NCBI GenBank assembly: GCA_018302545.1
Contig: JAGVZM010000002.1
Span: 2,198-66,197, forward strand
Reading direction: 5' to 3'
DNA length: 64,000 nt
Source: Candidatus Woesearchaeota archaeon
Lineage (GTDB): Archaea; Nanobdellota; Nanobdellia; SCGC-AAA011-G17; GW2011-AR18
Below the pieces are notes generated by a model. The model was not told the DNA's origin, searched no databases, and saw only the letters and a program-made list of their open reading frames with translations. The position numbers and the translations under genes were made by a program. The stretch's first letter is position 1, and the number at the start of each line of letters is the position of its first letter. Below are positions 1,394 to 62,779 of the stretch, in pieces.

Positions 1394-2842
1394 TTATTGA
1401 ACGCTCCTATTAATACTCCACAATCCAACATCATCATTAACAACTAAGGGTATAAAGTAATTACCCCCATAAGTTAACAAAAACATAAATTTTTCATTAT
1501 TGTTATTAAAATATCTTATTTTAGTTTTTTTATCAAACAAAATATAAGTCACATTATAATTATTAAAATAACTTAAAGTTTTATTTAAATCAGTAGAGTT
1601 CATTATGACTTCAAAGTCATTAATTCTCTGGTCTATATCTGAAACATAAAGAGCATTTTCATCTAAAAAAGTTTTCTTGTTAGCATATTTTATAAAATCA
1701 GCATTACGATAGCTTGAAAAAACAACATCTTGATTGTCATGTGATTTCAAAAGCTTAATAGCTTGAAAATAGTTTTGATCAGGAGAAAAATTAGGAAGTT
1801 CATTATAATAAACTAAAAATGAAAATAAAATACCACAAATCAATACTAACAAAGTCATAAATTTAAATATGCCAGATTTCCAATTGTGTTTAAATAACAT
1901 GGAAAAAGCTAAAGCTGCAAAAAAAGCCATTAAAAAGGAGAGATAAAACAAGATATAATGATTATAAAAAGCAAATAACAACAAAAAGAACAAAACAAGA
2001 TAAATAAAAATAAATCTATAAAATCTATTATAGTAAAAATAAATTCCGATCAAAGCTAAAACAAAAATGAAAAGACTAAACCCATATTTTCCGCCAAATT
2101 CAAATATGATAAAAGAGATTAAGTTTACAAAGGAGAATTCTCTTAAACCCAACAAAAAGTCAGGAGGTAAACCAATAAATAAAAGTCTATAAAATTGTAG
2201 AATAAAAGAAATTAAAAAAAAAGTTAATAGTAAAGAAAATTCCTTATAACTCTTCTTTGTATAAGCATAAAAAAGAAAACTAAGTAAAACAAGGAATAAT
2301 CCAAATATAGAAAAGAAACCACTAAGTAAAAAAGATAAATAACTTAAAATTTTTTTGTCAGTTTTAAATAAATAAAAGCCTAAAATAATAAAAAAAACAG
2401 AAGCAAGATACTTAGTAGATACAGAAAAAAAATATAAAAAAGTAGGAGAGACAATTAAAATTAAAGATGCCATAAACTTTAATTCTGGCTTTACTTTATC
2501 TACTAAAAGATAAAATAAAACAAATGACAAAATACCTAAGAAAAAAGGTAAAATCCTGACTAAAAGTCCTGGACTAAAGCTAATTAGATAATACCAACCA
2601 AATTCTTCTAAGTTGACTCTGCCCCCATAACTAAGTTCATCAAAATTATTAATAGCATTTAAATTAGAGTAATCAGCCAGTCTTAAACTATTATAACTAT
2701 CCCCATCTAGAAGCAATCCATTTGTAGAGTAAAACCTAATATAATGAGATAAGCCTAGTAAAAATATACATAAAACAAGGAGGATCCAAAAATACTTCCT
2801 AGCAGTGAACAAAGTAATACCTCCCTTCTCTAAAAGATTCAA
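1394..2842 (-). CDS. polytopic GT-C-fold membrane protein, divergent AglB/STT3-like paralogue
   Basis: 482 aa, about 11+ TM helices then a soluble C-terminal domain; first-loop acidic motif LLLDGDSYNSLR resembles the STT3 DxxYFxxR loop; no WWDYG (region reads SSYRNADFIKYANKKTFLDEN). Confidence 0.45.
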   Translation of the reverse strand: MNLLEKGGITLFTARKYFWILLVLCIFLLGLSHYIRFYSTNGLLLDGDSYNSLRLADYSNLNAINNFDELSYGGRVNLEEFGWYYLISFSPGLLVRILPFFLGILSFVLFYLLVDKVKPELKFMASLILIVSPTFLYFFSVSTKYLASVFFIILGFYLFKTDKKILSYLSFLLSGFFSIFGLFLVLLSFLFYAYTKKSYKEFSLLLTFFLISFILQFYRLLFIGLPPDFLLGLREFSFVNLISFIIFEFGGKYGFSLFIFVLALIGIYFYYNRFYRFIFIYLVLFFLLLFAFYNHYILFYLSFLMAFFAALAFSMLFKHNWKSGIFKFMTLLVLICGILFSFLVYYNELPNFSPDQNYFQAIKLLKSHDNQDVVFSSYRNADFIKYANKKTFLDENALYVSDIDQRINDFEVIMNSTDLNKTLSYFNNYNVTYILFDKKTKIRYFNNNNEKFMFLLTYGGNYFIPLVVNDDVGLWSINRSVQ

Positions 2843-50289: not shown

Positions 50290-53241
50290 TTATTTACTCT
50301 TTTTTAAATCTTTTCTATTCCTAACATTAAAAATAGAGTAGTAAACAATCAATAAAACTAAAGCAAAAACTAAAGCCCCTATGCCCCAACCAGGAATATT
50401 GTTGGATTCAAAACCAGTAGCACAAACCCCTACAACTCTAAGCGGACTACTCAAACCCATTGCTGTAGCTTCTGCTTGAGTTATTTGATTGGTATTACAA
50501 ACATCAAAACCTAAAGCTGCAAAATTCTGACCACAAGTAACCTCAACATCATCCAACTCTCCATCATTATCTAAATCAATACAACTCTTAAGATTAACAA
50601 AGGACGTCCCAGGAATACCTCTTGTACAAGATTGGCAACAATTAGGTTCATTTATATTACCAGATAAAGAAAGATTACCATTACAAGCTTCACCAACACC
50701 GCATAAATATCCTCTAACACTACCGCAACTAACTGATCCTCCACCAGGACCTCTACCTATTATACTTCCACAATCGTTTCTACAAACACCATCACCACAA
50801 CAAGTCATTCCTCCAAGACAGTCATTATTATTAAGACACTGCCCTCCTATATTAGTAATTCCAGTATACAAAAGACAACTAGGACAAAAACTAGAATTAA
50901 ATCCTCCTAAAGCATTTTCTAGATCAGAAACAGGACCATAATGAATCCAACCTAAGTAAAGATAAGTAGCATTCATAGGAGCAACATAATTAAAATTTAT
51001 TATACCATTCAAAACAGGTATAGCTGTTAGAGTATCTAAAACTACAAGAGAATTAGTATCATTAAATCCAACAACAAAGCTAGTTGCATATCCTGAGAAT
51101 ATTGAAGAACCTCCTCCAAAAGTTGGATCTTCTCTTACACAACTACACTGCAAACTAACTGTTTGACCAACAACAGCTGTAACCATCATTCCTCTATTAG
51201 TTATTGCAGTTCCATTGTTCCAGACACATTCAGTTTGACAAGTATTAGAACAAATAGGATCAGGAAGAACTCTACAAATACCAGAATTCGCACCTTGTTG
51301 AAGAGCGCTACTTCCACTATTAAGATCACAATAAAATCCAGTGCCTAAGGAAGAACAATCATTATTACTACTACAAGTAACAACCTCACATAAACTAGTT
51401 GAAGGATTACAAACCTCAGTTAACCCACAGTCATTATTGGTATTACAAATTGAACAAGTTCCAGTTTGACAAATCAGACATTGCCCAACTAAAGGATTGC
51501 TAGTTCTTAAACATCTTGCATCAGGATAATTCTGACAAGTTCTACCAATCCTACAACCAGAAACACACTGACATCCATCACAAACTTCCCCAATACTACA
51601 ATCACTATCAAAAACACAACTAGCATTAACAATATGAAGTAATTGATCATTTCTATTTCCAGAATCACAAATTAAATTATTATTTGTAGAATTTAGAAAA
51701 TTAAAAGCATATCTTCCCTCATCTAAAAAAGCAGAAGATAAGAAACCAGTACTACCAAAACGAATTGGTGAATAATTACCATATGAAAAAGAGTTATTAT
51801 CTAAATCTCTTAAAGTAAAATTCAAAGATCCACTATTCAAAACATTTCCTTGTGAATCTAACAAACAAGAAAGATAACCTATAGCAGAGTCTCCCTCTTC
51901 AATCGTTAAATTATATCCATTACCGCTATGTAAAATACGGCCGTCAGTCCAATTACAAGAAGGATTACAATTTAAACCTAAATTAGGATCTCTAACTTGT
52001 AAAACCCCTCTAAAGTTATCTACAGAATTACAATTAGGATTAGGAGCACCACCAACTGTAAATATATAAACCCCAGGAGTAGAAGGAACAAAAGATCTAA
52101 TAGCATTACCATTAGTAACACCAATATTAGTATCCACTAAAACAGGGGCAGTTAAACTATTAAAGATATTATAAATCACCAAATTTGTATTTGTGCTATC
52201 TAACAAAGCACCAGAAGAATCTTGTAAACATGAAGCATTTATCATAACATTATCTCCTGTGTTTACACTAACAACATTAGGACCTGAAAGATAATTCCCT
52301 CCTTCCCACTGACAACCAAGATTACATGATACACTAGAAGCTGCCCTAAGAAGACAACTAACTTTATTTCCATCATTATTACAAGAGTAATTAGGATCAC
52401 AAAAATATTGTCCTAATTGATAAACATTTTTACAAGAAGCAAAATCACCAGAACAACTCCATCCATCAGAGACATAACCACAAAGACCTTGATGAGTACC
52501 ACCACCAATTTGAGGACTAACACAAATATTAGTAGAAATATCACAAGTTTCTCCAAGATTACAATCAGAGTTACTCAAACATCCAGGTCTACAAAGACCA
52601 CTAGAAAAATCACAAAAATTACCACTAGGACAAGTAAAACTTTGAGAAGAACAAGTAAAAGTACAAATACCAGGGCTAGCAACTCTTAAATCACAAGTTT
52701 CTCCAAGATTACAATTATTGTTGCTCAAACATCCAGGTCTACAAATTCCAGAAATAGTATCACAATAATTTCCCGAAGTACAAGGAGCATTTTGTCCACA
52801 ATTGTTAGGTGATTGAATTCCACAAATTCTAGTATTAGGATCACAATAATTAGAGCTACACTCTATGTTATTATTACATGAAAGTCCATCAGTTTTTTTA
52901 GGATCACACGAAACACCACTTCCTATATTACTGCAATAATAATTAGTATTACAAAAATATTCTGATGCAGTTAGACCCGAAACTTGTTTACAAGAAGTAA
53001 AATCCCCTGAACAATACCATCCATTTATAGTATCCCCACAATATCCAATATAATTAGTTATAGTAGTTCCACCACTTTGTTGTCCAATAACACAAGTATT
53101 AGTAGTAAAGTCACAAGTCTCACCAGTATCACAAAATTGATTTATTTGTCCACAAGGAGCTCCAGGTATAGCAAAAACAAGTTCAATAGAAAATAAACTA
53201 ATTAAAACAGCAATAAGTAAAAATAATCCCCTCTTTAACAT
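50290..53241 (-). CDS. giant cysteine-rich secreted surface protein with C-terminal TM anchor
   Basis: ORF opens at 53304; signal peptide MLKRGLFLLIAVLISLFSIELVFA starts at 53241; dozens of Cys in recurring C..G(E/N)(T/Y)CD.....C modules (e.g. GLCRPGCLSNSDCNLGETCD twice); DLDNDGELDD; C-terminal TM GIGALVFALVLLIVYYSIF plus basic tail. Confidence 0.75.
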   Translation of the reverse strand: MLKRGLFLLIAVLISLFSIELVFAIPGAPCGQINQFCDTGETCDFTTNTCVIGQQSGGTTITNYIGYCGDTINGWYCSGDFTSCKQVSGLTASEYFCNTNYYCSNIGSGVSCDPKKTDGLSCNNNIECSSNYCDPNTRICGIQSPNNCGQNAPCTSGNYCDTISGICRPGCLSNNNCNLGETCDLRVASPGICTFTCSSQSFTCPSGNFCDFSSGLCRPGCLSNSDCNLGETCDISTNICVSPQIGGGTHQGLCGYVSDGWSCSGDFASCKNVYQLGQYFCDPNYSCNNDGNKVSCLLRAASSVSCNLGCQWEGGNYLSGPNVVSVNTGDNVMINASCLQDSSGALLDSTNTNLVIYNIFNSLTAPVLVDTNIGVTNGNAIRSFVPSTPGVYIFTVGGAPNPNCNSVDNFRGVLQVRDPNLGLNCNPSCNWTDGRILHSGNGYNLTIEEGDSAIGYLSCLLDSQGNVLNSGSLNFTLRDLDNNSFSYGNYSPIRFGSTGFLSSAFLDEGRYAFNFLNSTNNNLICDSGNRNDQLLHIVNASCVFDSDCSIGEVCDGCQCVSGCRIGRTCQNYPDARCLRTSNPLVGQCLICQTGTCSICNTNNDCGLTEVCNPSTSLCEVVTCSSNNDCSSLGTGFYCDLNSGSSALQQGANSGICRVLPDPICSNTCQTECVWNNGTAITNRGMMVTAVVGQTVSLQCSCVREDPTFGGGSSIFSGYATSFVVGFNDTNSLVVLDTLTAIPVLNGIINFNYVAPMNATYLYLGWIHYGPVSDLENALGGFNSSFCPSCLLYTGITNIGGQCLNNNDCLGGMTCCGDGVCRNDCGSIIGRGPGGGSVSCGSVRGYLCGVGEACNGNLSLSGNINEPNCCQSCTRGIPGTSFVNLKSCIDLDNDGELDDVEVTCGQNFAALGFDVCNTNQITQAEATAMGLSSPLRVVGVCATGFESNNIPGWGIGALVFALVLLIVYYSIFNVRNRKDLKKSK
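52541..52744. repeat. intragenic tandem duplication (two ~54-nt near-identical units 150 nt apart)
   Basis: 52541-52594 tcacaagtttctccaagattacaatcagagttactcaaacatccaggtctacaa versus 52691-52744 tcacaagtttctccaagattacaattattgttgctcaaacatccaggtctacaa; encodes the repeated CRPGCLSN(S/N)(D/N)CNLGETCD module. Confidence 0.8.
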
Positions 53242-53281
53242 ATAAAATAGAACATCAAAATAGCTATTTAAAATTATTCTT

Positions 53282-53689
53282 TTAATCAGACCAGATAGAA
53301 ACAAACATTAAGATAGTAACTAAAGGAAATAAATTTGTTATAAATGCATATTGTGGGAAAAACCAAACACCCACCATTATTTCAACAACAGCAATAATTG
53401 CAAAAATTTTGCTCATGTGATGTCCCCTTCTAGCAAATACCCAAAATAAAACAAAAGCACCTATCGCACCAGCAAGATCAAATAAACCATTATCAAAACT
53501 TAATAGATCTATAGCATCAACAGCAATTGCAAAAGGTAGTTTCCACAAATCCAAAGCAATATCTAAAAAGTGTTTTAAAGAAAACAAAACAGCAAAAGCC
53601 AGAACAATACCAAAAATAACCCAACCATAATCAAAAGGTTTACTAACAGAATTAACAACAAAACCTGTTAAATCATCTAAACCGAACAT
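53282..53689 (-). CDS. hypothetical integral membrane protein
   Basis: 135 aa, 4 TM; immediately upstream of and co-directional with the giant surface protein gene. Confidence 0.5.
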   Translation of the reverse strand: MFGLDDLTGFVVNSVSKPFDYGWVIFGIVLAFAVLFSLKHFLDIALDLWKLPFAIAVDAIDLLSFDNGLFDLAGAIGAFVLFWVFARRGHHMSKIFAIIAVVEIMVGVWFFPQYAFITNLFPLVTILMFVSIWSD

Positions 53690-54263: not shown

Positions 54264-55061
54264 ATGAAAAAGTTCATACTAATTCTAGTGATGTTAATTC
54301 TAATAATAAGTTGTACTAACAAAGATAAACCTACAAAAGAGGATAAAAGAACAGAGATATACCTCCCATCCCCAGGAACAACTTGGCAATGGCAATTATC
54401 AGGAAAAATAAATACCAATTATAATGTAGAATTATATGATGTTGACCTATTTGAGACATCAATAGAAACAATTAATGAATTACATAATAGAAATATAAAA
54501 GTAATCTGCTATTTCTCAGCAGGTACATTAGAAGAATACAGAGAAGATTATGAAAATTTTCCCAAGGAGATAATAGGTAAAAGCTTATTAGAATGGCCAG
54601 ATGAAAAATGGTTAGATATATCTAATTATAAAAAGTTTTCAGATATCATGGCAAAGCGTATGGATTTAGCTGTAGAAAAAAATTGTGATGGTATTGAACC
54701 AGATAATGTAGATGCATATACTCAGGATAGTGGCTTCAATTTAAGCTACGATAATCAATTAGAATATAATAAGTGGTTAGCAGAAGAAGCACACAAAAGA
54801 AATTTATCTATTGCGTTAAAAAATGACCTAAATCAAGTTAAGGATTTGGTAAATTATTTTGATTTTGCAATAAATGAACAATGCTTTTTATATAATGAAT
54901 GTGAATTACTCCTTCCCTTTATTAAACAAAATAAAGCAGTTTTAGGAGTAGAATACGAATTAGATTTACACCAATTTTGTAAAGAAGCAAATTCATTAAA
55001 TTTTAGTTGGTTGAAAATGGATTTAGAATTAGACGGCAGTAGAGAATCTTGCAACAATTAA
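54264..55061 (+). CDS. GH114-like endo-alpha-1,4-polygalactosaminidase family lipoprotein
   Basis: 265 aa; lipobox-like LILIISC; WQWQL...YDVDLFE...KVICYFSAGT.EEYRED...WPDEKWLDI...CDGIEPDNVDAY...YNKWLAEEAHKRNLSIALKND. Confidence 0.65.
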   Translation: MKKFILILVMLILIISCTNKDKPTKEDKRTEIYLPSPGTTWQWQLSGKINTNYNVELYDVDLFETSIETINELHNRNIKVICYFSAGTLEEYREDYENFPKEIIGKSLLEWPDEKWLDISNYKKFSDIMAKRMDLAVEKNCDGIEPDNVDAYTQDSGFNLSYDNQLEYNKWLAEEAHKRNLSIALKNDLNQVKDLVNYFDFAINEQCFLYNECELLLPFIKQNKAVLGVEYELDLHQFCKEANSLNFSWLKMDLELDGSRESCNN

Positions 55062-55108
55062 GTATTTAAAGTTTCATAAAATTTTGAAATCATAGTCCCG
55101 TCGTCTAG

Positions 55109-55131
55109 ATTAGTTTAAAAACTAAAGACAA
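55109..55131 (+). other. tRNA-Gln intron 1 (23 nt, D-loop after A14-G15), canonical hBHBh' motif
   Basis: Outer helix GTC/GGC (55100-02/55133-35), central helix GTCT/AGAC (55103-06/55126-29), bulges AGA (55107-09) and AAC (55130-32), inner helix TTAGTT/AACTAA with a TAAA loop. Confidence 0.75.
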
Positions 55132-55154
55132 CGGCCCAGGATCGAGGACTCTGG

Positions 55155-55167
55155 ATCAATAGGAGAA
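55155..55167 (+). other. tRNA-Gln intron 2 (13 nt, position 37/38)
   Basis: Anticodon stem as outer helix, central helix CTCT/GGAG (one G-U), bulges GGA and AAA; no real inner helix (relaxed hBH). Confidence 0.7.
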
Positions 55168-55403
55168 ATCCTTGGACGGCAGTTCGAATCTGCCCGGGAC
55201 TATTTTTCCAATAAATTTAAATAACTTTAGTCTTAATCTATTTTCATGAAAACATCAAAGCTAATACAAAATAAGTATTTTTTCTTAGCCATGCTTATGA
55301 TGTTCTAATAGCCTAAAATATTTAGGAGGCCATTGCAATGATAAAAAACAACAAACAGATAGAAGAAGGAACTTTTAAATATCTAGAACTATCAAAGAAA
55401 AAA

Positions 55404-57527
55404 ATGAAGAAAAAGTTTTATATCACAACACCAATTTACTATGTAAATGATAAACCTCATGTTGGTCATGCATATACTACAATAATAGCAGATATTCTAG
55501 CAAGGTGGCATAGATTAAAACAAGAAGATGTATTTTTCCTAACTGGATTAGATGAAAACGGACAAAAAACAGTCGAAGCTTCTATAAAGTTCGGATTTAA
55601 AAGTCCACAAGCATGGTGTGATTATATAGCAGAAGAATATCTAAAAACATGGAAAAATCTAAACATAAGCAATGATGATTTTATAAGAACAACAGAAGAA
55701 AGACACCATAAACTTTCTATAGAGTTCACAAAAAAAGTTCAAAAAAAAGGAGACATCTATAAAGGAAACTATATAGGATTATATTGTGAAGGTTGTGAAG
55801 CATACATAACAGAATCAGAATTAACAAAAGAAGGTTTTTGTCCAAATCACAATAAAAAACCAAAGGAGTTACATGAAGAAAATTACTTTTTCAAATTAAG
55901 TAAATATGATAAACAATTACTAGAACATATAGAGAATAATCCAAGTTTCATACAACCCGAGTTCAGGAAAAAAGAAATTATTAATTTCATAAAGCAAGGA
56001 TTAAAAGATATAAGTATCTCTAGGCAGAGTTTAACATGGGGAATTCCTTTTCCTGGAGATGAATCTCAAAGAATTTATGTTTGGTTTGATGCATTATTAA
56101 ATTATTTGCACCCAAAGGAATATTGGCCTGCAAATATACAAATGATGGGTAAAGAAATAATAAAATTTCATTGTATAATCTGGCCGGCAATGCTTCTCTC
56201 AGCCGGATATAAACTTCCAAAAAAAGTATTTGCTCATGGATGGTTAACAATAAATGGAGAAAAGATGTCTAAATCTTTAGGCAATGCTATAGACCCAAAT
56301 CACCTTACTAAAACATTTGGAACAGATGCATTAAGATACTATTATGCAAGAGAAGTACCTTTAGGAAATGATGGAGATTTTTCAGAAAAACAATTAGTAG
56401 CTAGATTAAACAATGAGCTAGCAAATGAACTAGGCAACTTAATTTCAAGAACCTTAACTTTAATAGAAAAAAAATTAAATTCAGAAATAAAAAAAGATAA
56501 GGTAGATAAAACATTATTCAAAGATTTAAAGGTTAAACAAATCGACAAGTTCATCCAAGATATAGAACCCCATAATGCAATTGCATTAATTTTTCATTTT
56601 ATACATTCATGTAATCAATATATTAGCGAAAAAGAGCCATGGAACATCAATAAAGAAAATGAATTAAATAAAATACTCTATAATTTAACAGATGCTATTA
56701 GAATAATATCAATATTGCTCTATTCATTTCTACCAGAAACATGTGAAAAGATTCATAAACAATTATCTTTAGACACTAAAAAATTAAGTTTAGCTCAGGC
56801 TATTCCTGGAATATTAACAACAACAAAAATAAACAAAGGAGAAATTTTATTCCAAAAAGTAATTTTCAAAGAAACAAAAGATGTTTTCAAAAATCCTAAA
56901 TGTTATGTAACTCCAGAAGTGCAAAGATTAGGAATTAAAGTTAAATTTGCAGAATTAATCAACCTAAATATAAAAAAGAAACATATGGGTTTAGAAAAAT
57001 TAAAATCTGAAATAAAGAAAAGTTTCAAACCGAACATAAGAGTACTAAAAGGATATGATAATTACTCTAGATTATTAAACATAGAAGAAGGACAATGCTC
57101 AGTCTACAATTTAATGGATTTAGTTGAAGAAAACGGAAAACTTCCAACAATAAATACAGCTGTAGATAGTTATAATATTATATCTCTTGCTAAAAGCCTT
57201 GTTGTAGGTGCTCATGATAGAGAACATGTAAAGGGACCAGTGAGGTTTGATATTTTTAAAGGAAATGAATTATACATCCCATTATTCACAAATGAAAAAA
57301 AATCAGTTAATAAAGGAGAATTTGGTTGTATTGATGATGAAAAAGTTCTTTGTAGACTAGATATTAAACAAGGCGATCAAACAAAGGTGACAGAAAAAAC
57401 AAAGAATATTATTCTTTATGTACAAGGAAATGAATATACTTCAGAAGAATATTTGCAGGAAGCAATAGAAGAAATTTGTAAGTTAATGATTAGATTTTGT
57501 GATGGAGAATATAAAATATTAAATTAA
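55404..57527 (+). CDS. metG: methionyl-tRNA synthetase fused to a C-terminal B3/4 (COG3382-like) domain
   Basis: FYITTPIYYVNDKPHVGHAY (HIGH), Zn knuckle CEGCEAY...CPNH, KMSKSLGN; C-terminal about 200 aa LPTINTAVDSYNIISLAKSLVVGAHD...GEFGCIDDEKVLCRLDIKQGDQTKVTEKTKN match the B3/4 pattern; ORF opens at 55338 but MKKKFYITTP (55404) fits the family. Confidence 0.9.
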   Translation: MKKKFYITTPIYYVNDKPHVGHAYTTIIADILARWHRLKQEDVFFLTGLDENGQKTVEASIKFGFKSPQAWCDYIAEEYLKTWKNLNISNDDFIRTTEERHHKLSIEFTKKVQKKGDIYKGNYIGLYCEGCEAYITESELTKEGFCPNHNKKPKELHEENYFFKLSKYDKQLLEHIENNPSFIQPEFRKKEIINFIKQGLKDISISRQSLTWGIPFPGDESQRIYVWFDALLNYLHPKEYWPANIQMMGKEIIKFHCIIWPAMLLSAGYKLPKKVFAHGWLTINGEKMSKSLGNAIDPNHLTKTFGTDALRYYYAREVPLGNDGDFSEKQLVARLNNELANELGNLISRTLTLIEKKLNSEIKKDKVDKTLFKDLKVKQIDKFIQDIEPHNAIALIFHFIHSCNQYISEKEPWNINKENELNKILYNLTDAIRIISILLYSFLPETCEKIHKQLSLDTKKLSLAQAIPGILTTTKINKGEILFQKVIFKETKDVFKNPKCYVTPEVQRLGIKVKFAELINLNIKKKHMGLEKLKSEIKKSFKPNIRVLKGYDNYSRLLNIEEGQCSVYNLMDLVEENGKLPTINTAVDSYNIISLAKSLVVGAHDREHVKGPVRFDIFKGNELYIPLFTNEKKSVNKGEFGCIDDEKVLCRLDIKQGDQTKVTEKTKNIILYVQGNEYTSEEYLQEAIEEICKLMIRFCDGEYKILN

Positions 57528-61321: not shown

Positions 61322-61456
61322 CGCAAGTTCAAATCACAAGAGTTTCGCAATATTTAAGTAATACAAGCCATAAGTACAATATAACTAGGAGAAAACAAAA
61401 CAAGAGGGTGAAGCGTTATTCGTCAAAACCCACTCTCGAAAGTTCAGATCATAAAG

Positions 61457-61530
61457 TGGGCCCGATGTGATTTGAACACACGACCCCTACCTTATCAGAG
61501 TAGTGCTCCACCAAGCTGAGCTACGGGCCC
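61457..61530 (-). tRNA. tRNA-Ile(GAU), intronless
   Basis: Minus strand GGGCCCG TA GCTC AGCTTGGTG GAGC A CTACT CTGATAA GGTAG GGGTC GTGTG TTCAAAT CACAT CGGGCCC A; 74 nt; no encoded CCA. Confidence 0.9.
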
Positions 61531-62433: not shown

Positions 62434-62491
62434 GAAAAGTTGTGAAGAACATAAACGCCCTAGGCGGGACTCGAACCTGCGACCCCTTGAT

Positions 62492-62505
62492 CTCTGCTCA
62501 GTAAG
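62492..62505 (-). other. tRNA-Asn intron 3 (14 nt, position 37/38)
   Basis: Central helix CTGT/GCAG (one G-U), bulges TAC and AGA; cuts leave CTGTTA|A. Confidence 0.65.
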
Positions 62506-62512
62506 TAACAGT

Positions 62513-62534
62513 TTCACAGTCGTTATGTAGAACA
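62513..62534 (-). other. tRNA-Asn intron 2 (22 nt, anticodon stem 30/31)
   Basis: Bulges TGT and AAA flank CAC(T)/(T)GTG; inner helix GTT/GAC; removal turns CTTG...A into the 5-bp stem CTTGA/TCAAG. The 31/32 alternative would leave a U-U mismatch. Confidence 0.55.
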
Positions 62535-62549
62535 CAAGTGCTCTACCTG

Positions 62550-62565
62550 TTGCTCCCTAATAGGT
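62550..62565 (-). other. tRNA-Asn intron 1 (16 nt, D-loop after A14-G15)
   Basis: Central helix GCTC/GAGC, bulges AGA and AAC (identical to the tRNA-Gln D-loop intron), inner helix CCT/AGG; outer helix poor (relaxed BHB). Confidence 0.65.
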
Positions 62566-62779
62566 CTGAGCTACTAGGGCGTCTAAGAATTAGGCAACTA
62601 AAATTCTTTAAAAGCTTTTCTAAGATAAAAAATAGAATAAAAAAGAGTAAAATTATAAATTAGAGTGTAGCCCTGCTGATTACGCTTATTTTCATAAAAA
62701 GCCAAAGCTTCAATCAACAAGCTTAAGTACAGGGCCTTAAAAAAGAAACCTTTTTTTAATATAAAGTTTTCTAAAAAAT

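Follow-up and report, generated by a model that had tools for sequence, protein, structure and literature searches.

The DNA analysed here, a stretch of 64,000 nucleotides (the window; 29% GC), carries at positions 55094-55202 of its forward strand an intact tRNA acceptor stem and T arm with 36 nucleotides (nt) too many between them. The question raised by this locus is whether it represents a functional tRNA gene interrupted by introns, a gene in decay, or a chance resemblance. From the sequence and from comparison with related genes, we conclude, with a probability of roughly 0.9, that it is a functional tRNA-Gln(CUG) gene of the Woesearchaeota (DPANN) in which three colinear exons are split by two bulge-helix-bulge (BHB) introns.

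Exons, introns, and putative flanking signals of the tRNA-Gln locus

At the raw locus, ARAGORN made no tRNA call with its intron options on or off, and Rfam returned no tRNA match at the gathering threshold or at E ≤10. Across the whole 64-kb window, ARAGORN reported one tRNA only, a tRNA-Ile at 61456-61530 on the reverse strand, and Rfam concurred. Deletion of 55109-55131 and 55155-55167 leaves a 73-nt sequence that ARAGORN calls tRNA-Gln(ctg) with a full cloverleaf. The identity and the coordinates of the 109-nt gene (55094-55202, forward strand) in a preliminary description of this DNA were exact, and its account of a canonical acceptor stem and T arm with 36 additional nucleotides was borne out letter by letter, the excess falling into segments of 23 and 13 nt.

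In gene order, the forward strand of 55094-55202 reads AGTCCCGTCGTCTAG / ATTAGTTTAAAAACTAAAGACAA / CGGCCCAGGATCGAGGACTCTGG / ATCAATAGGAGAA / ATCCTTGGACGGCAGTTCGAATCTGCCCGGGACTA, alternating exon and intron. Exon 1 (55094-55108; 15 nt, tRNA positions 1-15) comprises the 5' strand of the acceptor stem (AGTCCCG), U8, C9, the 5' strand of the D stem (GTCT), A14, and G15. Intron 1 (55109-55131; 23 nt, ATTAGTTTAAAAACTAAAGACAA), placed by BHB scan, fold, and comparison, interrupts the D-loop at position 15/16; it consists of an A, the hairpin TTAGTT-TAAA-AACTAA (inner helix h'), AGAC (the intronic strand of the central helix H), and AA. Exon 2 (55132-55154; 23 nt, positions 16-37) supplies the remainder of the D-loop (CGGCCCA), the 3' strand of the D stem (GGAT), C26, the 5' strand of the anticodon stem (GAGGA), and the loop CUCUGG, with the anticodon CUG at 55151-55153. 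Intron 2 (55155-55167; 13 nt, ATCAATAGGAGAA), placed by BHB scan, occupies the canonical position 37/38. Exon 3 (55168-55202; 35 nt, positions 38-73) contains A38, the 3' strand of the anticodon stem (TCCTT), the variable loop GGAC, the T arm, the acceptor strand CGGGACT, and A73. All features lie on the forward strand. Already in the raw DNA, the acceptor stem (AGTCCCG paired with CGGGACT) and the T arm (GGCAG-TTCGAAT-CTGCC) are complete. The discriminator A is at 55202, with no CCA encoded.

A BRE/TATA-like sequence, AAGTATTTAAAGTTT (55060-55074, forward strand), with TATTTAAA at 55063-55070, precedes the gene, 23 nt separating the TATA-like box from tRNA position 1. The motif recurs 23 to 24 nt upstream of orthologous genes in three related contigs (L001, L156, and L157) and in variant form in a fourth (L158), and it may serve as the promoter. 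Archaea use oligo-T terminators, and the five T residues directly after the discriminator (55203-55207, forward strand) are a likely transcription termination signal. Among the open reading frames (ORFs) of the window, none of at least 60 amino acids (aa) overlaps the gene, which is flanked by a 265-aa ORF ending at 55061 and by a methionyl-tRNA synthetase (MetRS) gene, metG, starting at 55338. In a protein search, this MetRS was 100% identical to a Candidatus Woesearchaeota protein, and its next relatives (62-69% identity) came from Woesearchaeota/Nanoarchaeia metagenome bins; the 100% match identifies the host as archaeal.

The exon boundaries were fixed by comparison with intronless tRNA-Gln genes of related archaea. 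Those of L040, L075, L086, and L111 were supplied, among the matches listed, by a pattern search of contigs with two free gaps, a loose search that also returned many chance bacterial matches and bacterial tRNA-Glu and is not a census. Relative to the intronless genes, the raw gene has two insertions only, of 23 and 13 nt, and the spliced product is colinear with them, aligning without gaps with tRNA-Gln of L158, L086, L040, L075, and L111. The spliced D arm joins UCGUCUAG to CGGCCCAGGAU at the 15/16 junction; written as GTCT-AGCGGCCCA-GGAT, it matches GTCT-AGCGGCC[A/T]A-GGAT in L040, L075, L086, and L111 (among the matches listed), and the sole difference in the L158 D arm is a compensated D-stem change. 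Within the D-loop, the lone difference is a C in the window gene versus A or T in these five genes, one position before A21. The conserved D-loop features that the preliminary description had noted in the spliced product are those of intronless archaeal tRNA-Gln D arms: the form UCGUCUAGCGGCCNAGGAU (as RNA, UCGUCUAGCGGCC[A/U]AGGAU) is common to Woesearchaeota, Ainarchaeum, and Desulfurococcales among the matches listed. With this D arm, a cloverleaf, the anticodon CUG, an A1-U72 pair, and A73, the product has the features of an archaeal tRNA-Gln.

BHB motifs and folding of the precursor

By definition, a BHB motif has a 3-4-3 layout: a central helix of 4 bp is flanked by two 3-nt bulges, one on either strand, and splicing takes place within the bulges (PMC4090602, PMC3239211). 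A scanner for 3-4-3 motifs, with cleavage set after the second bulge nucleotide, found both introns with ends identical to those given above (outer helix h = 3 and h' = 6 for intron 1; h of at least 5 and h' = 1 for intron 2). Both introns fit the 3-4-3 definition, and removal of the DNA between the bulge cleavage sites yields the canonical tRNA-Gln cloverleaf.

Judged by its letters, intron 1 is a strict hBHBh' motif. Its outer helix pairs GTC (55100-55102) with GGC (55133-55135), its central helix pairs GTCT (55103-55106) with AGAC (55126-55129) through four Watson-Crick pairs, its bulges are AGA (55107-55109) and AAC (55130-55132), and its inner helix of 6 bp pairs TTAGTT (55110-55115) with AACTAA (55120-55125). 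Every helix and bulge of the motif that the preliminary description had called perfect is present; the adjective was slightly generous for h, since G55100 doubles as acceptor-stem G7 and the helix is effectively 2 to 3 bp long. For intron 2, the position, the helix CTCT/GGAG, and the bulges GGA/AAA were all as described. Its outer helix is the 5-bp anticodon stem (55144-55148 with 55169-55173), its central helix pairs CTCT (55149-55152; C32, U33, C34, and U35 on the exon side) with GGAG (55162-55165) and includes one U.G pair, and its bulges lie at 55153-55155 (GGA) and 55166-55168 (AAA). There is no real inner helix, one U-A pair being possible at most, and the motif is of the hBH (bulge-helix-loop) type and not hBHBh'.

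When the 109-nt precursor was folded as a ViennaRNA ensemble, H of intron 1 formed with a probability of ∼0.63 and h' with probabilities of 0.73 to 1.0, the pairs of the intron 1 helices spanning 0.62 to 1.0, while the mature D stem had a probability of 0; the minimum free energy (MFE) fold of the raw sequence includes both intron 1 helices. The ensemble probability of the second BHB is ∼0.05, a value that carries little weight because the same nearest-neighbour model also misses the mature cloverleaf (−22.4 versus an MFE of −34.8 kcal/mol). For the same reason, a thermodynamic ordering of the two splicing steps was considered and set aside as uninformative.

The strength of the GTCT/AGAC pairing bears on what counts as the D stem. 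With the mature partner GGAU, GUCU forms two Watson-Crick and two G.U pairs, while with AGAC it forms a perfect 4-bp helix that appears in the raw MFE fold. AGAC (55126-55129) could thus be taken for the genuine 3' half of the D stem, with the hairpin kept as an expanded D-loop or extra arm and another segment removed downstream. Such a tRNA, however, would have a 19-nt D-loop without G18G19 and 14 unexplained nucleotides (AACGGCCCAGGATC) between the D stem and the anticodon stem, and CGGCCCAGGAT would be misplaced or discarded, although it equals the conserved D-loop and D stem of intronless tRNA-Gln orthologues. Moreover, the equivalents of AGAC in orthologues differ (GGAC, GGAT, AGAA) and are always paired with GTCT, which fits an intronic strand of H. 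No orthologue supports the alternative, which we consider very improbable, and the preliminary description rightly treated AGAC as intronic. Its further claim, that AGAC is a decoy pairing with the exonic D-stem strand, holds for the pairing; the supposed decoy is no more than the intron's contribution to the central BHB helix, one that to our knowledge every BHB intron makes.

A trivial explanation for these motifs would be that they are BHB look-alikes arising by chance in AT-rich DNA and that the tRNA is an artefact of fitted deletions. Loose motifs (h ≥2, h' optional) are indeed very common, with ∼100 in 300 nt and 14,446 on the forward strand of the window, and ARAGORN with introns allowed and arbitrary deletions gives many contradictory calls. 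Strict motifs (h ≥3, h' ≥5, length ≤40), in contrast, number 10 on the forward strand of the 64-kb window, and a blind scan of both strands, in which each BHB candidate was removed before ARAGORN was run, returned the tRNA-Gln locus alone. Furthermore, the two deletions coincide with gaps relative to independent intronless orthologues and with covarying introns elsewhere (see below). We regard an origin by chance as scarcely credible.

Several other assignments were considered and rejected. With intron 1 alone removed, ARAGORN -i reported a tRNA-Pyl(cta), a call that arises from a misplaced second intron: the uninterrupted anticodon loops of orthologues without a 37/38 intron (L125, L131, L132, L146, L152, and L158) read [C/U]U[C/U]UGGA. 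A split or permuted tRNA gene is ruled out by three exons that are colinear within 109 nt, with one promoter-like motif and one oligo-T run. Group I and group II tRNA introns are catalytic RNAs of hundreds of nucleotides; self-splicing introns of these kinds are ruled out by lengths of 23 and 13 nt and by Rfam, which gave no match at E ≤10.

Related introns in tRNA-Gln and tRNA-Asn genes

A metagenome scan for tRNA-Gln genes with an insertion of 12 to 42 nt between the D-stem strand and GGCCNAGGAT gave 31 loci. The intron lies exactly at 15/16 in 10 of the 31, which represent nine distinct sequences (L125, L126 [identical to L129], L127, L131, L132, L137, L138, L146, and L152). These nine genes are of low to medium GC content and include both CUG and UUG isoacceptors; no MetRS gene adjoins them within the flanking DNA examined. 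All follow a common design, GTCT-AG↓A-hairpin-(A/G)GA(C/T/A)-NN↓(C/T)GGCC (arrows mark splice sites), and their hairpins are unrelated in sequence, as illustrated by TTAGTT/AACTAA in the window gene and by TCGA/TCGA, CTAGCTAA/TTAGTTAG, and CCAGT/GCTGG.

Covariation was evaluated in an alignment of ten genes, the window gene and the nine distinct 15/16 genes. All six pairs of the inner helix change on both sides in a compensatory manner. Cells of h' are paired in 93.6% of cases, compared with 82% in shuffled alignments (0 of 500 reached the observed value) and 32-53% in slid controls, and the covariation score is 0.415, compared with 0.190 in shuffles (again 0 of 500) and 0.06-0.15 in slid controls. 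The central helix is retained in 97.5% of cells, with U13 pairing with G or A, and RNAalifold recovers H and h' independently. The outer helix of this motif consists of invariant exon sequence and lies beyond the reach of covariation. Introns homologous to intron 2 and ending in [A/G]GAGAA occur at the same 37/38 site in L001, L003, L127, and L138, and the L157 intron ends in AGAGTA. The 37/38 central helix of L126, a UUG isoacceptor, uses AAAG on its intronic side instead of the [A/G]GAG of CUG genes, so that the pair at position 34 changes on both sides; AAAG compensates for U34 of the UUG anticodon.

Relatives carry tRNA-Gln(CUG) upstream of or near the MetRS gene, and the window gene occupies the same position. 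Among these orthologues, the L158 gene (1143-1214) has no intron and lies ∼0.8 kb upstream of metG with a toxin-antitoxin pair between them; L157 (1882-1967) has only a 14-nt intron at 37/38; L156 (1781-1869) has only a 17-nt intron at 21/22; L003/L004 (2886-2987) combine 15 nt at 21/22 with a 37/38 intron; and L001 (1525-1633) combines 24 nt at 25/26 with a 13-nt 37/38 intron, ATGAATAAGAGAA, that is clearly homologous to intron 2 of the window gene. A 3-4-3 motif can be written by hand for every intron in the set.

These comparisons also bear on whether the gene is active. The silence of the standard finders, the existence of intronless tRNA-Gln in a relative (L158), and the fact that 64 kb of the genome is in view, with another copy possible, would be compatible with a decaying, nonfunctional pseudogene that has acquired insertions while a separate intact gene supplies tRNA-Gln(CUG). 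Yet each insertion is an exact BHB intron, and every conserved tRNA feature reappears once the two are taken out. Nine further distinct genes keep a 15/16 intron, with compensatory changes. Conservation extends to the promoter motif and the oligo-T tail, and the gene sits in the same place upstream of metG as tRNA-Gln(CUG) of its relatives. A pseudogene is accordingly an unlikely account of the locus, and we favour a functional, intron-containing gene.

The metG-linked orthologues present five intron configurations in addition to the intronless one. MetRS identity across these Woesearchaeales ranges from 63 to 86%, and sister pairs in the MetRS tree that are ∼86% identical differ in their introns (L157 versus L156, and L158 versus L003). 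Such differences between close relatives point to fast turnover of introns by gain, loss, or relocation. We tentatively suggest that these processes are acting on BHB introns in this lineage today and that 15/16 might be a recurrent insertion site so far unlisted. The site is absent from the examples given in one review (20/21, 22/23, 25/26, 29/30, 30/31, 45/46, continuing with 53/54, 56/57, 59/60, 3/4, and "etc."; PMC4090602), a list that offers examples only, and we make no claim of novelty for 15/16.

A second disrupted gene lies near the first. At 62456-62580 on the reverse strand, a tRNA-Asn(GUU) gene contains three introns (15/16, 30/31, and 37/38) and measures 73 nt when spliced; the blind BHB-removal scan missed it, and its introns were resolved by hand with the L001 orthologue as a guide. 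Its 15/16 intron follows the plan of tRNA-Gln intron 1, GCTC-AG↓A-hairpin-GAGC-AA↓C, and is kept in the window and in L001 with different hairpins. The design shared by the Gln and Asn introns is AG↓A-hairpin-copy of the D-stem partner-AA↓C. Comparison of the Gln and Asn introns revealed no sequence similarity beyond that imposed by the motif and no evidence of transposition between them.

Proposed splicing and relation to known systems

In archaea, EndA cleaves the bulges of BHB introns, RtcB ligates the exons, and CCA is added. Starting from the observed motifs, exon boundaries, covarying conservation, and product cloverleaf, we infer a corresponding pathway here, in which transcription, EndA cleavage, ligation, and any order of splicing are predicted steps. 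A single precursor would be transcribed from the conserved TATA-like promoter. In this precursor, the D-stem strand GUCU would pair with intronic AGAC and not with mature GGAU, with which it makes two G.U pairs, and the 6-bp hairpin, along with a short outer helix between G18, G19, and C20 on one side and U8, C9, and perhaps G7 on the other, would complete a 3-4-3 BHB. A second BHB would form as C32-U35 pair with intronic GGAG above the anticodon stem. EndA would cut after the second nucleotide in each of the four bulges, and an RtcB-type ligase would join G15 to C16 and G37 to A38. The D stem could then re-pair with GGAU, yielding the D-loop AGCGGCCCA, and CCA would be added.

Classical alpha4 and alpha2 EndA enzymes reportedly require a strict hBHBh' motif (PMC3239211). 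Because intron 2 lacks h', its removal presumes a more tolerant enzyme. In a survey that took in a Woesearchaeota genome, DPANN lineages were reported to possess an alpha4-type EndA bearing an additional L3 loop, along with more extensive tRNA disruption (PMC5829648). A strict D-loop BHB beside a 37/38 hBH motif would make this gene a substrate pair for the specificity of the DPANN alpha4/L3-loop endonuclease.

The gene belongs to a known class, that of archaeal multi-intron tRNA genes with noncanonical BHB introns (PMC4090602, PMC4033280, PMC8450103), and both D-loop introns and tRNAs with several introns are already well documented for Crenarchaeota, Methanopyrus, and DPANN. Methanopyrus kandleri pre-tRNA-Glu(UUC) has a D-loop intron at 20b/21 and a canonical one at 37/38; in vitro, Aeropyrum pernix EndA spliced both, whereas those of M. 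kandleri itself and Archaeoglobus fulgidus were inefficient at excising the one in the D-loop (Kaneta et al. 2018, PMC5829648). Like that gene, ours combines D-loop and anticodon-loop BHB introns in one colinear gene. It differs in the tRNA concerned, in the site (15/16 instead of 20b/21), in having a strict hBHBh' motif with 3-nt bulges on both sides instead of a relaxed HBh' motif, and in its low-GC DPANN host as opposed to a hyperthermophilic euryarchaeon.

[quoted passage not shown] 2011, PMC3241643), a likeness that holds at the level of the D-loop and not of the exact site. There, the D-loop intron is cut more slowly than an anticodon-loop intron (PMC3241643), and the case is that of a single-intron gene of a crenarchaeon with an (alpha-beta)2 EndA bearing a Crenarchaea-specific loop. 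Thermoproteales tRNAs, as summarized in two reviews, contain up to three canonical and noncanonical BHB introns, and their intron content shifts quickly between related species (Sugahara 2008 and Fujishima 2010, via PMC4033280 and PMC4090602). Unlike these TACK archaea, the host here is a DPANN archaeon, and our comparisons between tRNAs found no intron similarity suggestive of transposition.

Within the DPANN superphylum itself, the gene resembles disrupted tRNAs for which frequent noncanonical or multiple introns have been described, with Pacearchaeota and Woesearchaeota among the groups surveyed (PMC3239211, PMC5829648) and ARMAN-2 providing such examples as sites 53/54 and 59/60 (Fujishima 2011, PMC3239211). 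The main texts of these two papers contain no description of the 15/16 intron family of tRNA-Gln. Counterparts in our data are tRNA-Gln introns at 21/22 (GGCCAA↓...GGCT.G↓GGAT), found in L003/L004, L156, L043 (Woesearchaeota), and L077 (Nitrosopumilales). They too lie in the D-loop of the same tRNA, and in them the exon 5' of the splice site likewise pairs with an intronic copy of its partner; they differ in being six nucleotides further 3' and in using G18-C20a (GGCC), not a D-stem strand, for the central helix.

ARAGORN and Rfam overlook both the tRNA-Gln gene and the nearby three-intron tRNA-Asn gene, so that genomes of this lineage would seem to lack tRNA-Gln(CUG) and tRNA-Asn. The predicted tRNA sets of DPANN archaea have been found incomplete, which the authors of that survey attribute to unidentified disrupted genes (PMC5829648).

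Current understanding stands, since the mechanism and the gene class are already known, and the intron-turnover series holds rather more promise as a lead than the tRNA-Gln gene itself. The insertion of noncanonical introns is an open question in the field. With introns at 15/16, at 21/22, at 25/26, at 37/38 alone, or nowhere, the metG series may provide snapshots of intron insertion of the kind that reviews have sought (PMC4033280). If BHB introns are indeed being gained, lost, or relocated in these Woesearchaeota, the lineage would be a natural system for catching noncanonical intron insertion events.

Intron configurations of tRNA-Gln genes

The comparison covered tRNA-Gln(CUG) genes of related Woesearchaeales, all on the plus strand, that lie near metG, the methionyl-tRNA synthetase (MetRS) gene, or upstream of it. 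Five configurations were found besides the combination of introns at tRNA positions 15/16 and 37/38 (the canonical site) seen in the window: 25/26 plus 37/38 (database locus L001, 1525-1633), 21/22 plus 37/38 (L003, 2886-2987), 21/22 only (L156, 1781-1869), 37/38 only (L157, 1882-1967), and none (L158, 1143-1214). These configurations differ between sister genomes whose MetRS proteins are ~86% identical, and the comparison suggests that introns of this gene are gained and lost fast in these archaea.

A different D-loop intron is present in the tRNA-Gln genes of a set of GC-rich metagenome contigs, mostly from JGI (L128, L133-L136, L139-L145, L147-L151, and L153-L155), which are probably from Thermoproteota. 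These genes read GTCTAGCGGCCAA, followed by an insert ending in a second GGCCAA before GGAT; owing to the repeated GGCCAA, the exact splice site is ambiguous. Most of the set also carry an anticodon-loop intron of 31-37 nt, and L134 and L151 have the D-loop intron only. D-loop introns of tRNA-Gln are therefore widespread and occupy several sites. In another database locus, L119, a tRNA-Gln(UUG) gene (2680-2798, minus strand, counted on the reverse complement) has two insertions: a long one interrupts the anticodon loop, and another lies within the T loop, in the context GGCGGTTCGAA-ATTCAAACGAAA-ATCCGCC. The latter resembles a T-loop intron located near 58/59-59/60.

Other disrupted tRNA genes

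The window holds a second disrupted tRNA at 62456-62580 (minus strand), where neither ARAGORN nor Rfam gave a tRNA call. Split at its junctions (slashes), it reads GCCCTAGTAGCTCAG/ACCTATTAGGGAGCAA/CAGGTAGAGCACTTG/TGTTCTACATAACGACTGTGAA/ACTGTTA/CTTACTGAGCAGAG/ATCAAGGGGTCGCAGGTTCGAGTCCCGCCTAGGGCG. We read it as containing three introns (15/16, 30/31, and 37/38), removal of which gives a 73-nt tRNA-Asn(GUU) with G73. At 30/31, a T.T mismatch falls within the central helix of the motif; the corresponding helix of the orthologue at L001 7165-7294 (minus strand) is perfect. CTGT occurs twice in the window gene, and using the first copy as the helix strand would yield the anticodon GUG, not GUU. The T stem contains an A.C mismatch. 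Since GTGAAAC is present here, this is probably the gene that the preliminary description had named tRNA-Phe; our reading is tRNA-Asn(GUU), not tRNA-Phe.

Three long disrupted tRNAs, all on the minus strand, share the start GGGCC[C/T]GTAGCTTAG: L001 6631-6809 (179 nt), L158 5303-5458 (156 nt), and L157 5741-5851 (111 nt). They are apparently related to the window tRNA-Ile(GAT) (61456-61530), which is intronless, whereas its counterparts carry large insertions, which include an internal hairpin in L001 and L158.

Protein-coding regions and a promoter-like motif

For the window MetRS (729 amino acids; 55338-57527, plus strand) as well as its closest relatives, precomputed Pfam annotation gives a match to PF03483 (B3_4), familiar as a domain of the PheRS beta subunit. 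In the match list, many further archaeal MetRS proteins have PF01588 (tRNA_bind) or lack such an extra domain; MetRS with PF03483 would be an unusual domain combination. Cys, Asn, Gly, and Ser are very abundant in the product of a 1,004-amino-acid open reading frame (50290-53304, minus strand), which also contains repeated modules of the C-x-C type. This product has a hydrophobic segment in its N-terminal part and a hydrophobic anchor at the C terminus, and is likely a secreted or surface protein.

Upstream of the tRNA-Gln gene, 23-24 nt before position 1, the window and several relatives have in common the conserved sequence A[A/C][G/T]TATTTAAA[G/C]TTT, which is promoter-like (window 55060-55074, plus strand; L157, about 1845-1859; L156, about 1744-1757). 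This motif could serve as an anchor for locating further unannotated tRNA genes of the lineage.
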